A DNA stretch of 64,000 bases from Candidatus Omnitrophota bacterium (GCA_020632555.1 JACKFI010000001.1:133152-197151), one strand, 5' to 3'; counted from the first letter of the stretch, positions 25,400-38,804 are shown. The notes: generated by a model from the sequence alone, not told the origin. A program made the numbers and translations.

Positions 25400-25456
25400 A
25401 GGCGGGATAGAACTATCTTCGATAGGTTCAGGTTATGAAAGGTCTAGCCTGATTCC
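25400..25456 (-). pseudogene. Degraded tRNA-fMet-like fragment (putative distal att remnant of the island)
   Basis: ttcaggttatga (25427-25438) is a 12/12 match to the anticodon arm of the intact tRNA-fMet at 38759-38770, same orientation. Upstream gcgggatagaac resembles a deleted version of the tRNA 3' half (gcggggacaggatttgaac). Confidence 0.35.
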
Positions 25457-25480
25457 CAACCTGTTTAATAACAATATGTT

Positions 25481-25515
25481 GCGTGATGGTCAAAAAAATG
25501 TGCCAGATTTGTGCC
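25481..25515 (+). repeat. Island direct-repeat motif, copy 1 (TGTGCCA-N4-TGTGCC)
   Basis: gcgtgatggtcaaaaaaATGTGCCAGATTTGTGCC; the 22-nt core is identical to copies at 29991-30012 and 35931-35952 apart from one base, and the flanking 5' similarity with copy 2 extends to about 35 bp. Confidence 0.7.
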
Positions 25516-25556
25516 TATCCTAAAGAGCTACTTTTTTTGATGATAAGCCGACCTGA

Positions 25557-26690
25557 TTAAGTGTCCTTCAATGCGTAACTTGTGCTGCGCCCACCCGCGG
25601 TTTCTTTTACTAAAATACCCTTTTCAACAAGATCGAGAATATCGCGCAACGCCGTGTCCTGTGAACACTGGGTGATCTTCGCCCATTTAGAAGAAGTGAG
25701 CTTGCCTTCAAAACCATCAAACAACTTATTGATGATCATCTTCTGCCTCTCGTTAAGGGATTGGGCAGGATGAGATTCCCAAAAACGCGCTTTCTTAAAT
25801 ACACCCGACAAAGTATTTTCAGTTGCATCCAACGCCCGACCCAAACAGCTCAGGAACCACACAAGCCATGGCGTAATATCAATGCCGTCTTTTGTGGCAC
25901 GGTTACTTTTCTGTGTTTTTTCAAGAATATCATAATAGGCATTCCGTTCCTGCCGGATCTGATTCGACATGCTGTAAAAACGCTCCCGGCTGCCGTCGGC
26001 ACGTGCCAGTTGCATATCGGCAATAGCCCGGGCAATTCTTCCGTTACCATCATCAAAAGGATGAAGTGTCACAAACCACAAATGCCCAATACCAGCTTTG
26101 AGCACAGGATCTAAATCCTTTGTGAGCGAAATCGAAGTGTTAAACCATTTCAGAAATTCCTTCATTTCACTTTTAAGACGGTTGGCCTGCGGTGCTTTAT
26201 AATGAACCTTCTCCCGGCCGATAGGACCAGACACAACTCTCATGGGACCATGCTTATCGTCGCGCCAATCAGCCACTGTAATTTTATGCATTCCGCTTCT
26301 ACCGGTTGGGAATAAACTGGCATGCCAGCCAAACATTCGATCCTGCGTAAGGGGCTTGTCAAATTTCTGTGTGGCATCGAGCATCATTTCCACCACTCCA
26401 TCCACATGACGATCAGAAGGCACAAGTCCACCGATGTCCATGCCCAGCCTGCGTGCAATGGATGACCGCACTTTGGCAGGGTCAAGAATCTCACCTTCAA
26501 TTTCACTACTTTTTAAAACATCAAGGGTGAGAGTCTGCAGGATTGCCTCGGAACGCAAAGAAAAACCCAATGCTTCCATTCTTCCAATCAGTCGCCCTTG
26601 GCGATTGCGGACAGTCCCCAAGATAGACGCGACCTTTTCGTGATCCCATGTCAATTTAGGCCAAATGGTTAATTCATGAATGTATTTCAT
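25557..26690 (-). CDS. Fic family protein (AMPylase-type toxin, class with N-terminal inhibitory motif)
   Basis: 377 aa; Fic motif HPFDDGNGRIARA; N-terminal S-x-x-x-E-G (SSEIEG) inhibitory-helix motif; C-terminal winged-helix-like region. Confidence 0.85.
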   Translation of the reverse strand: MKYIHELTIWPKLTWDHEKVASILGTVRNRQGRLIGRMEALGFSLRSEAILQTLTLDVLKSSEIEGEILDPAKVRSSIARRLGMDIGGLVPSDRHVDGVVEMMLDATQKFDKPLTQDRMFGWHASLFPTGRSGMHKITVADWRDDKHGPMRVVSGPIGREKVHYKAPQANRLKSEMKEFLKWFNTSISLTKDLDPVLKAGIGHLWFVTLHPFDDGNGRIARAIADMQLARADGSRERFYSMSNQIRQERNAYYDILEKTQKSNRATKDGIDITPWLVWFLSCLGRALDATENTLSGVFKKARFWESHPAQSLNERQKMIINKLFDGFEGKLTSSKWAKITQCSQDTALRDILDLVEKGILVKETAGGRSTSYALKDT

Positions 26691-26889
26691 GGCAAATTCC
26701 TGCGGTGAATAGTCTCATTATTCTACGCATACTATGCGGAGAATATACCATGTTTTCTCCGCATACACAAGAGAGATTTAAATCTATATTGCTCCCTACT
26801 AAAAGAAAGCGTCATTGGATATAACGGCTATGTCCAATCATATCCAATTATTGAATCTTTCCATGAGATTTGAAACGATGTGCCGGATT

Positions 26890-26909
26890 CCTGCCTACCG
26901 GCAGGCAGG
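26890..26909. repeat. Near-palindrome CCTGCCTACCGGCAGGCAGG (copy 1)
   Basis: 7-bp arms CCTGCCT/AGGCAGG around ACCGGC; embedded in a degenerate copy of the TGTGCC motif (gaTGTGCCggattcCTGCC...ggTGTGCCaa). Second copy at 38564-38583. Confidence 0.6.
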
Positions 26910-26918
26910 TGTGCCAAG

Positions 26919-37015: not shown

Positions 37016-37199
37016 AAACTTTACCTAACATATGTAAGGTTAACCTAACACGTAAAGTATAACATTGTTTCCAGAACTGTCAAATTTATACTGCTCCACG
37101 GTGATATACCGTATTGTGTGTAAATTAACTGTCATCCCCGAAATTTTTTATCGGGGAACCATTTAAAAGTAGTAAAAAAAGGCGTATCTTTCTGTTTGG

Positions 37200-38530
37200 A
37201 AATGTTTAACCGGGTTGACCCATGTCAGCCCAGAACAGAAAGGATACGCCCATGTACCAAACATTTGATACTTTAAAACATCGCGGAGCCGGGTCAAGGA
37301 TTTCATTAATTATACCCAACCGAAAGATTTTTGGATCGATATTAATATGCATCTTAGAAAACTAACCAAAAGTTTTATTGAAGAAACTCTCGACGAAGAA
37401 ATGACCCAATATCAACAACGAGAAAAACATCAGCGGTTAAAGAAAATGATCGATTACCGAAACGGACATTATCAACGCAACCTCGATACGACCATCGGCC
37501 CTCTTGATAATATTGCCGTTCCGCGTTCACGAAGCGGACTATTTAAACCTACGGTTTTTAAGCGTTACCAAAGACGCCAAGAAGCTGTTAACACCGTCAT
37601 CTGCAATGCCTTCCTGCGCGGCATATCCACCCGTGAAGTCGCTGGCGCTTTAAAACCAATCCTTGACACCAACATCTCCGCTTCCGCCGTCTCACGAATA
37701 ACAAAATCTTTAAATGCCCAAGTTAAAGCATTCCATCAACGTCAACTGCTCGACGAATATCAGTTTTTATTCCTAGACGGTATTGCTATCTCAGTCAAAG
37801 GAGCGCTTAAAGCCAAGAAAATTCTTGTCCTAACTGCTTATGGCATTACGATCTTCGGTAAAAAAGAGCTCATCGCCTTTAGAATCTCTAACAGCGAGTC
37901 AAATCAAGCCTGCGAAGGATTTTTAAATGATCTATTTAAACGCGGCCTGCAAGGCAAAAACCTTAAATTGATTATCACCGACGGGTCCAAAGGCTTTATT
38001 AACGCCGTCGACCTCGTTTACCCTCACGTCAAACATCAGCGCTGCTGGGTTCATAAACTTCGTAATTGCACTAAACATCTTAAGAAATGCGATATTGATG
38101 CATTTAAAAATGATGCCCGCAAGATTTACAATGCCTCGACTCATCGAGATGCTGTCGCGGCTTTTAAGAGTTTACGCCAACATTGGGTCAAAGATTATCC
38201 GCAAGTTGTCAAACTCATCGAACAGGATTTAGATAGTCTTTTGGCTTTTTTAGAAATTCCAATCAAGGAACAATACCGCGAATTTATCCGTCGTCGAATT
38301 CGTACAACCAACATCATCGAGCGTTCATTCCGGGAAATCAGACGCCGCACCAGACCCATGGGATGTTTTGCAAATATTGATAGCGTCAGCAGGATTATTT
38401 ATGCGATATTTAATCGCTTAAACACCAAATGGCAGGAGAAACCTTTAACCCAATTTACACAATTTATTTGACATTACCGCAAATTGAAAGGTGCGGTTAA
38501 AACAAGAAAACCCCGTCTCTCCTCGACGGA
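37200..38530 (+). mobile_element. IS256-family insertion sequence (ends approximate)
   Basis: Transposase gene plus flanks; a possible short terminal inverted match GTTTAACCG (about 37224) with CGGTTAAAAC (about 38497); boundaries not resolved. Confidence 0.3.
37347..38471 (+). CDS. IS256-family (mutator-type) transposase
   Basis: 374 aa; IS256-type DDE core blocks (LFLDGIAISVK, LIITDGSKGFINAVDLVYPHVKHQRCWVHKLRN, TTNIIERSFREIRRR). Confidence 0.85.
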   Translation: MHLRKLTKSFIEETLDEEMTQYQQREKHQRLKKMIDYRNGHYQRNLDTTIGPLDNIAVPRSRSGLFKPTVFKRYQRRQEAVNTVICNAFLRGISTREVAGALKPILDTNISASAVSRITKSLNAQVKAFHQRQLLDEYQFLFLDGIAISVKGALKAKKILVLTAYGITIFGKKELIAFRISNSESNQACEGFLNDLFKRGLQGKNLKLIITDGSKGFINAVDLVYPHVKHQRCWVHKLRNCTKHLKKCDIDAFKNDARKIYNASTHRDAVAAFKSLRQHWVKDYPQVVKLIEQDLDSLLAFLEIPIKEQYREFIRRRIRTTNIIERSFREIRRRTRPMGCFANIDSVSRIIYAIFNRLNTKWQEKPLTQFTQFI

Positions 38531-38549
38531 AAACAGGGTTTTATATTGG

Positions 38550-38583
38550 TTGCGGGGACAGGACCTGCCTACCGGCAGGCAAG
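38550..38583. repeat. 14-bp copy of the tRNA-fMet 3' end fused to palindrome copy 2
   Basis: ttgcggggacagga (38550-38563) equals 38731-38744, and is immediately followed by cctgcctaccggcaggcaag. Confidence 0.6.
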
Positions 38584-38697
38584 TTTGAATGGTTTCGCGG
38601 CTTCGCTTACGCTCAACCATTTCCTCGCCTAACGGCTCGGTCACCTGCGCTCGCTTTCGCTCGCTGCACGTCCATTCACCCATCCCACTAATAAATT

Positions 38698-38723
38698 AAG
38701 AAGGCCCCAATTGGGGCCTTCTT
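38698..38723. terminator. Rho-independent terminator hairpin (bidirectional)
   Basis: AAGAAGGCCCC-AATT-GGGGCCTTCTT perfect 11-bp stem, A/T-rich on both sides; directly 3' of the minus-strand tRNA-fMet. Confidence 0.55.
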
Positions 38724-38730
38724 AATTTAA

Positions 38731-38804
38731 TTGCGGGGACAGGATTTGAACCTGTGACCTTCAGGTTATGAGCCTGACGAGCTACCGGGCTGCTCCACCC
38801 CGCG
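38731..38804 (-). tRNA. Initiator tRNA-fMet (anticodon CAT)
   Basis: Reverse complement CGCGGGGTGGAGCAGCCCGGTAGCTCGTCAGGCTCATAACCTGAAGGTCACAGGTTCAAATCCTGTCCCCGCAA. Has a C1:A72 mismatch and three G-C pairs in the anticodon stem, hallmarks of bacterial initiator tRNA, and is near-identical to E. coli tRNA-fMet. CCA is not encoded. Confidence 0.85.

Follow-up and report, generated by a model that had tools for sequence, protein, structure and literature searches.

The stretch of DNA analysed here over its full 64,000 nucleotides (GCA_020632555.1, JACKFI010000001.1:133152-197151; hereafter the window) comes from an uncultured Candidatus Omnitrophota bacterium, the placement in that phylum being given by the enolase encoded in the window. 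Between 25.4 and 38.8 kb this DNA carries what we consider, with high probability, to be an old, composite, and immobile genomic island lacking an integrase, located at the gene of an initiator tRNA-Met. The preliminary description of the window had proposed an accessory island integrated at the tRNA-fMet, without an integrase and either stabilised or decayed, which proposal is supported by the comparison with the nearest relatives; the island, real as it is, proved nevertheless to be composite rather than a single element, with four cassettes parted by apparent remnants of one attachment-site (att) arm.

The tRNA gene and its partial copies

The right-hand boundary is an intact tRNA-Met gene, as the preliminary description had stated and as both ARAGORN and Rfam called it (Table 1); a C1xA72 mismatch, an A11-U24 pair, and two of the three G-C pairs of the anticodon stem, all read from the sequence, give that tRNA the appearance of an initiator. 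The order FtsH-like, eno, ftsB, tRNA-Met in the flank is common to about 35 Omnitrophota loci from genomes and metagenomes, in which synteny is kept up to the tRNA-Met gene and never past it; after the tRNA, none of those loci has any of the window genes from 1-38.7 kb. The same order occurs in the nearest relative reached, GCA_964474085.1 (enolase 92% identical in amino acids and 81% in nucleotides), at the locus that we designate L184, where L167, L169-L172, L174, L183, and L184 denote loci or contigs of related genomes. The nucleotide homology between the window and L184 ends at the 3' end of the tRNA (window 38731 = L184 11749), and 112 nt downstream of the relative's tRNA-Met starts the gene of a 299-aa tyrosine integrase (Phage_integrase), past which lie those of a GmrSD/HNH protein, an AAA protein, an acetyltransferase, a resolvase, and a Panacea-domain protein. 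The family of that integrase is common in Omnitrophota, and among 120 listed integrase clusters none has as its longest contig the one recorded with the SPFH protein and the enolase of the window. L167 lies on the same contig as L184, the one bearing the 92%-identical enolase, and about 25 kb further along; according to the record coordinates, some 52 kb separate the L184 tRNA from the last att copy in L167. Directly past the L184 tRNA-Met and upstream of the integrase gene we also observed, at 11753-11830, an inverted copy of the 5' part of the tRNA (…GACGAGCTACC…CTGCTCCACCCC).

The window itself, by contrast with that relative, has an IS256 transposase in the place of the integrase. Pfam found zero integrase domains over the entire 64 kb, and tblastn with the L184 integrase as query detected neither a homologue nor a pseudogene; these results bear out the earlier statement that no integrase is present, and indicate that the window copy is a decayed remnant and not a mobile element.

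The left boundary is the less evident of the two. A fragment at 25.4 kb had been taken in the preliminary description for an att duplication, on the strength of a deletion variant of the 3' half of the tRNA and of the exact 12-mer TTCAGGTTATGA, which in the window occurs only at 25427-25438 and 38760-38771; the chance expectation is about 0.48 exact 12-mer matches to any part of the tRNA in 64 kb and both strands. A gapped alignment of 25370-25489 with the tRNA fell only within the top ~2% of the window tiles under four scoring schemes, for which reason we dropped it as evidence, and at E<=5 Rfam found nothing tRNA-like at the left end over 25.0-39.3 kb. On in-window tests alone this boundary would thus fail, and what rescues it is the evidence from other genomes. 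Window 25427-25515 matches L167 at 12549-12638 (92%) and at 17916-18004 (89%), and in that genome a 42-nt (or 28-nt) copy of the 3' part of tRNA-Met begins with the 12-mer: the element there consists of the direct repeat GGCAC-N6-GGCAC, about 60 nt, and then TCATAACCTGAAGGTCACAGGTTCAAATCCTGTCCCCGCAA, the 3' 42 nt of tRNA-Met, identical to 38731-38772. The decayed copy of this core at 25400-25438 in the window therefore sits where L167 has a perfect 42-nt segment of the tRNA 3' part. Of the two arm-plus-core copies in L167, one stands behind rtc-RlaP and the other behind AbiE; in L169 and L170 a diverged arm with the same 77-79-nt spacing adjoins a perfect 42-nt core beside rtcR. The att duplication accordingly holds through the fusion of the arms to tRNA cores in L167, and not through any similarity within the window beyond the 12-mer.

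These loci of the closer relatives contain no intact tRNA. The L171 and L172 contigs stop inside a partial tRNA-Met copy, and five further Omnitrophota contigs (L004, L017, L032, L095, L112) stop within 153 nt past tRNA-Met; tRNA-Met and its copies appear to break assemblies, and the att architecture could help in the annotation of fragmented metagenome-assembled genomes of Omnitrophota.

On the tRNA-proximal side, the tail contains a second partial copy of the tRNA, which spans T-loop and 3' end (38550-38563 plus 38584-38589): the final 14 nt of the tRNA come first, and a 20-nt palindrome (38564-38583) separates them from TTTGAA. The same tail of terminator, GC-rich spacer, and T-loop copy follows an internal att core in L167, there uninterrupted by the palindrome. 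The copy at 38550 would be the relic of a second event, of a T-loop type. As to the palindrome itself, the near-palindromic 20-mer CCTGCCTACCGGCAGGCA(G/A)G occurs at 26890-26909 and at 38564-38583, inserted at GGATT^T(G) sites, once inside an att-arm motif and once inside the partial T-loop copy, with no third copy in the window; the three arm motifs of L167, like its T-loop copy, are without that insertion.

The arm repeat and the weighing of the island

The 18-nt sequence ATGTGCCAGATTTGTGCC, which contains GGCAC-N6-GGCAC, is present exactly at 25498, 29995, and 35935 of the window, and a fourth copy at 26878 is split by the 20-nt palindrome; the first of these, at 25498-25515 and here given as plus-strand text, ends arm A. 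All four copies fall within the island. The motif was counted 4 times in the window, 3 times in L167, and twice in L169, versus an expectation of 0.02-0.06 (0.06 in the window), and the nine copies have a single orientation, each 3-70 nt after a stop codon. From motif to core the distance is 77-79 nt in the window, in L167, and in the diverged L169 arm. We regard the repeat as a putative arm-type recombinase-binding site, which role is the most likely one for it; fragments B, C, and D would then mark the junctions between the four cassettes, and copy A the distal junction.

Two other functions of the repeat have to be considered. The one that we considered first, and then demoted, is that of a regulatory site, either a sigma54-type promoter or the operator of a tandem-binding regulator, one to each cassette, driving or controlling the gene that comes next. 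On the minus strand the repeat reads TGGCAC-N5-TGGCA with the GG-N10-GC spacing, so that the sigma54 pattern is perfect or has one mismatch; 80-245 nt separate copies A, B, and C from the PAS-LuxR, Fic, and DUF6933 genes downstream; the island encodes an RtcR-type activator; and arm A also holds TTGACC-N17-TATTAA. Nevertheless, three copies in the window and two in L167 agree in all 18 nt, the spacer among them, and three arms have 77 nt in common, identities that are better explained by shared ancestry than by convergent promoters. In three genomes, moreover, the motif stands at a constant 77-79 nt from a tRNA core; copy D is directed at the 3' end of rtcR, the 20-nt insertion interrupts copy B, and the variants keep both GGCAC units but have a G instead of the consensus T before the -12 GC; RtcR, finally, has a GAFNCA loop and the rtcB promoter is sigma70-like. 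We therefore consider a regulatory site unlikely, although the roles of att arm and regulatory site are not mutually exclusive.

The other function would be that of the site of an integron-like platform, in which a tRNA-adjacent recombinase inserts and excises small promoterless cassettes ending in the 18-nt sequence. In keeping with such a platform, each of the nine motif copies in the three genomes comes directly after the last gene of a block of 1-3 genes and in one orientation, the cassette genes are co-oriented, a tyrosine recombinase heads the array in the relative, and at four junctions the motif stands without a tRNA core. That orientation is, however, the one of nearly all the window genes; three copies of the motif are part of longer arms joined to a tRNA core, as in a classical att site; the 10 kb beside the L184 integrase are free of the motif; and the site is a direct repeat, in contrast to the imperfect palindrome of an attC site. 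As the window also lacks an integrase, an integron-like platform seems to us very improbable.

Returning to the tRNA-anchored island, several observations weigh against it. The preliminary description had recommended computing shifts of GC content and codon usage across 25.4-38.8 kb, but no such shift appeared: neither GC nor GC3 nor codon-preference distance separates the island from the rest of the window, and the largest deviations in codons and GC occur in plus-strand genes (RtcR, IS256, and FtsH-like), which indicates a strand bias. An empty tRNA-Met site was not found in the related genomes, so that the insertion is deduced rather than seen; the enolase-anchored scans of genome and metagenome contigs gave only relatives of at most 79% identity, which serve for the synteny of the right flank but are too distant for an empty-site test. 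The 106 open reading frames downstream of tRNA-Met in 20 distant Omnitrophota were housekeeping genes in a Pfam census, with no integrase among the listed families, and the site is consequently not a phylum-wide hotspot. The rtc cassette is distal to the tail in the window and proximal in L167, so that the arrays are not simply collinear. The distal flank of the relative's array (hyp193) matches window 17062-17616 and not the PAS-LuxR gene, which would mean that the true outer limit of the island could lie at 17.6 kb. To these points must be added that within the window 25400-25426 does not resemble the tRNA significantly, and that four junctions trimmed to the motif alone are hard to explain by random deletion.

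With respect to that outer limit, the distal flank of the relative's array has a single gene in common with the window, the one at 17062-17616 (77% in nucleotides), by which sharing the variable region may extend to 17.6 kb; no att remnants were found at 17.6 kb, beside that gene. The stretch 17600-25330 is a block of lower GC (0.34-0.41) with genes for HMG-CoA reductase, a chalcone-isomerase-like protein, LPG_synthase_C, SnoaL, DUF1295, a lipocalin, and the PAS-LuxR protein.

Should the region be no island at all, it would be ancestral chromosome and the 12-mer a chance match, with which reading the chance-level statistics within the window and the uniform composition would agree. Yet in other genomes the same 12-mer, with its 77-nt flank, is joined to tRNA-Met cores, the homology to the relative stops at the tRNA, and of the island genes only the rtc module was found in the related loci examined, with different neighbours in each genome; an ancestral chromosome is hence the least credible of all the explanations, and we give it hardly any weight. 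Between the window and the arrays of L184 and L167 the content differs; same-strain contigs from four runs, identical in arrangement to the window, add nothing to the comparison.

For the tRNA-anchored island we infer the following order of events. Elements carrying a tyrosine integrase would have integrated site-specifically into the initiator tRNA-Met gene, within its 3' part; the crossover would fall in the anticodon loop, the core would be formed by the 42 nt that end the tRNA, and the element-side arm would measure about 77 nt. Repeated integration, or else rearrangement between att copies, would have stacked the four cassettes—SoFic; AbiE plus DUF6933; the rtc RNA-repair module; and HEPN/MNT—and the internal att copies would later have been trimmed to arm fragments. 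The integrase would have been lost, and IS256 would have landed at the tRNA-proximal end. The integrase loss, the IS256 insertion, and the compositional amelioration together point to an old, fixed island. A tRNA-anchored defence island is thereby documented in Omnitrophota, a poorly known phylum; its att architecture, with a 42-nt core and a 77-nt arm bearing GGCAC repeats, is clear, and its state of decay is instructive.

Table 1. Positions in the window of the tRNA gene, the putative att remnants, and the island genes and RNA
Feature	Position	Strand	Basis and remarks
tRNA-Met(CAT), intact, initiator-like	38731..38804	-	ARAGORN, Rfam
Putative att core: tRNA 3' 42 nt, anticodon loop to 3' end	38731-38772	-	100% identical partial copies in L167, L169, L170
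Decayed distal copy of att core	25400..25438	-	exact 12-mer 25427-25438, remainder eroded
tRNA-proximal tail	38546..38730	-	terminator hairpin 38698-38723, GC-rich spacer, second partial tRNA copy
Arm A, putative full att arm of ~77 nt, ending in direct repeat GGCAC-N6-GGCAC	25439..25516	-	92%/89% identical to two L167 arms
Putative arm fragment B, split by palindrome 26890-26909	26878..26915	-	3 nt past AbiEii stop codon
Putative arm fragment C, 38 nt	29976..30013	-	4 nt past stop codon of the 138-aa gene ending the rtc cassette
Putative arm fragment D, 19 nt	35935..35953	-	23 nt past HEPN stop codon
Cassette 1: Fic, DUF4172 + Fic domains, PADLOC SoFic	25557..26690	-	HPFDDGNGR, SSEIEG
Cassette 2a: AbiEii 26919-27866, AbiEi 27859-28452	26919..28452	-	Pfam, PADLOC
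Cassette 2b: 449-aa protein, DUF6933 + TPR regions	28569..29918	-	PADLOC candidate family PDC-S63
138-aa protein, last gene of rtc cassette	30018..30434	-	no family match
rtc module	30547..35842	mixed	RtcA 30547-31560(-), SPFH 31557-32306(-), RtcB 32603-34120(-), RtcR 34244-35842(+)
Conserved structured RNA, ~190 nt, in rtcB-SPFH spacer	32331..32517	-	fold, covariation
rtcB promoter, sigma70-like TTGACA-N17-TATGCT	34164..34192	-	both hexamers conserved in four genomes, spacer varies
Cassette 4: HEPN 35977-36384, MNT 36386-37015	35977..37015	-	Pfam HEPN, NTP_transf_2, PADLOC
IS256-family transposase	37347..38471	+	Transposase_mut E=1e-89

Cargo genes and the rtc module

All the cargo belongs to defence or mobile-element families, and every one of the gene calls listed in the preliminary description (Fic, AbiEi/AbiEii, the rtc module, HEPN/MNT, and IS256) was confirmed by Pfam and PADLOC. 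The Fic protein (PADLOC SoFic, E=9e-43) has in the same chain the active-site motif HPFDDGNGR at residue 210 and the inhibitory SSEIEG at residue 61, the latter of the N-terminal (S/T)xxxE(G/N) form, and thus corresponds to a class II Fic, or SoFic. AbiEi (E=4e-86) and AbiEii (E=2e-69), whose reading frames overlap by 8 nt, are adjacent as in the AbiE systems, classed as type IV toxin-antitoxin or abortive infection. In the HEPN/MNT pair, with adjacent genes as in the toxin-antitoxin systems of that name, the HEPN protein contains RSISQDH (Rx4-6H) and the MNT protein GSx10DVD (GSVQQGTANKKSDVD), of the form GSx(n)DxD. In relatives, the position of the 138-aa protein is held by RlaP or a zinc-finger protein. 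The cargo genes are probably defences of abortive-infection or toxin-antitoxin type that work independently of one another, and next to them RtcR-controlled RtcB and RtcA would respond to RNA damage.

At the candidate ends of IS256 the inverted repeats are weak (78-81%), and a target duplication was not found. Two mutually inverted, 83%-complementary hairpin sequences (GTCATCCCCGAA…TCGGGGA) at 37123-37157 and 39095-39129, which may be small REP-like elements, bracket IS256, the tRNA, and tandem repeats. The latter, at 38813-39044 between ftsB and the tRNA, are two GC-rich units of 116 nt, 91% identical to one another, and a 41-nt piece of them is 85% identical to part of the tail that follows the internal tRNA core in L167. 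Elsewhere in the window, at 45975-51943 on the minus strand, are three tandem paralogues of 644-673 aa, each with a C-terminal Peptidase_S74 (endosialidase chaperone) domain.

We reached the rtc loci of the relatives through homologues of the SPFH protein, which in those loci were 83-92% identical. The module of the window (RtcB 343 bits, RTC 272 bits, and RtcR 269 bits with Pfam; RtcR 803 bits with PADLOC) encodes full-length RtcB and RtcA proteins and an RtcR with CARF, AAA+, and HTH regions, transcribed divergently from rtcB. Its nucleotide identity, confined to ~30659-35847, is 77-86% with L167, L169, and L171 and 72-80% with L174; that divergence (72-86% across relatives, 77-86% with respect to L167) resembles that of enolase (81%), which is consistent with a long residence. 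The neighbours are DUF1375 on one side and RlaP, a SIR2/DUF87 pair, and AbiE on the other in L167; PcfJ on one side and a zinc-finger protein, Rrf2, NorB, and RecQ on the other in L169 and L171; and in L174 the operon itself includes Rsr and three YrlA RNAs, followed by RlaP and PcfJ. At L174 5237-7231, between rtcR and rtcB, we observed a 207-aa protein, a vWA_Ro60 (Rsr-like) protein, and the three YrlA in tandem (68, 63, and 41 bits).

These neighbourhoods bear on the coupling between attack and repair that the preliminary description had envisaged. In such a unit the HEPN protein, and possibly AbiEii and Fic, would damage tRNA or rRNA during infection and Rtc would sense and reverse that damage. 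Published Rtc biology speaks for such a unit, the induction of Rtc having been linked to tRNA halves with cyclic-phosphate ends (PMC7790460) and RtcB to the reversal of MazF cleavage (PMC5416887). In L167, furthermore, rtc is again near AbiE and the SIR2/DUF87 pair. The AbiE pairs of the window and L167 have, however, no tblastn match to one another at E<=1e-5; the neighbours of rtc differ in every genome; and between the toxin cassettes and rtc lie att-arm remnants, an argument for their having been acquired separately. Neither is AbiEii, a GTP-specific nucleotidyltransferase, nor Fic, an AMPylase, of an RNase family. The module thus turned out to be a self-contained 5.2-kb unit that elsewhere stands beside quite different genes, and given the differing neighbours and the remnants between toxins and rtc, the co-location reflects serial capture at a shared integration site; a functional unit for attack and repair is in our judgement rather unlikely.

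Within the module, RtcR itself deviates in the loop that contacts sigma54, which instead of GAFTGA reads GAFNCA in the window and, in three relatives, GAFNGA. The consensus upstream of rtcB is TTGACA-N17-TA(T/A)GCT, and the sigma54-type GG-N10-GC is absent there. From these sequences, the clade of this RtcR appears to have left sigma54 control.

The spacer of 296 nt between rtcB and SPFH folds with z = -6.6, and its core of ~190 nt is 95% identical to L167 and L171, the third codon positions of the flanking genes being 52-67% identical. When L174 and L183 were added, the consensus contained 61 pairs with 98% of the cells paired, and ten pairs had changes on both sides, versus 3.3 +/- 1.4 in shuffled and 0-2 in slid controls. 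The RNA includes a T-arm-like hairpin, GGGGUUCAAAUCCCC, at 32421-32435 and a terminal hairpin of ~35 bp; it matches no Rfam family, and the YrlA model (RF02553) had no match to 32280-32630 at E<=10, while the same model finds the three YrlA in L174, where this RNA is carried alongside the YrlA genes. An 81-aa open reading frame overlapping the RNA gave only split matches in L171, consistent with a frameshift, and a scan of viral contigs for the RNA motif returned no matches. Just 5' of the conserved RNA, the window lineage alone has a hairpin-forming insertion of 78 nt (32523-32600, minus strand).

As a speculation to which we grant a small probability, the RNA may be a partner in repair: a sentinel or decoy that, when cleaved by a toxin or a phage nuclease, would provide the CARF domain of RtcR with a cyclic-phosphate ligand, upon which RtcR would drive a sigma70-type promoter without contacting sigma54; as a part of that same speculation, the rtc module would travel as island cargo with its own T-arm-mimicking RNA. 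The RtcR variant and the new RNA are relevant to the question, still open, of the signals and substrates of Rtc systems, and a conserved, covarying RNA inside rtc operons, absent from Rfam, is together with that variant the part of this island most worth following up.

Comparison with known systems

The rtc module resembles the E. coli rtcBA and Salmonella rsr-yrlBA-rtcBA operons in the RtcR transcribed divergently from rtcB and, in L174, in the presence of Rsr and three YrlA; an rsr gene was not found in the window. The rtc locus of P. aeruginosa PA14 contains the SPFH protein PaFlo8 (PMC13086221), and in the window, too, an SPFH gene is embedded in the rtc locus. RtcB, RtcA, and RtcR are thus those of an RtcR-regulated operon, whereas the GAFNCA/GAFNGA loop, the sigma70-type rtcB promoter, the ~190-nt RNA, and the carriage on a tRNA-Met island distinguish this module from the known rtc operons. 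YrlA is a bacterial Y RNA-like molecule (Rfam RF02553; PMC4201824), with which the RNA of the window has in common that it is non-coding, lies inside an rtc operon, and has a hairpin similar to the T-arm of a tRNA; unlike YrlA, however, it is located between rtcB and SPFH and not between rsr and rtcB, it is longer, and it has the 35-bp terminal hairpin.

The island as a whole is most readily compared with those inserted by tRNA-targeting tyrosine integrases, for which Williams reportedly distinguished in 2002 classes of sublocation within the tRNA gene, with crossover in the anticodon loop. As in such islands, the region adjoins the 3' side of a tRNA gene at which the homology to relatives ends; the block of identity extends from the anticodon loop to the 3' end (42 nt), with a displaced partial copy at the distal end, where the direct repeat is a 12-mer within a 90-nt element that in L167 bears the 42-nt core; and in the relative the integrase is directly downstream of the tRNA. 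The content differs between the window and the arrays of L184 and L167, where no empty site was found. What sets the window apart from the typical cases is the lack of an integrase, the erosion of the distal core to 12 nt, the internal junctions with arms alone, the fully ameliorated composition, the Omnitrophota host, and the initiator tRNA as the target. As in defence islands, SoFic, AbiE, HEPN/MNT, and PDC-S63, with their predicted functions, stand side by side, and the relative's array has GmrSD, the SIR2/DUF87 pair, AbiE, and the Panacea-domain protein; what departs from defence islands is the RNA-repair operon embedded among the defence genes. With these particularities, the island is an element of an ordinary kind, namely a defence island anchored at a tRNA gene.

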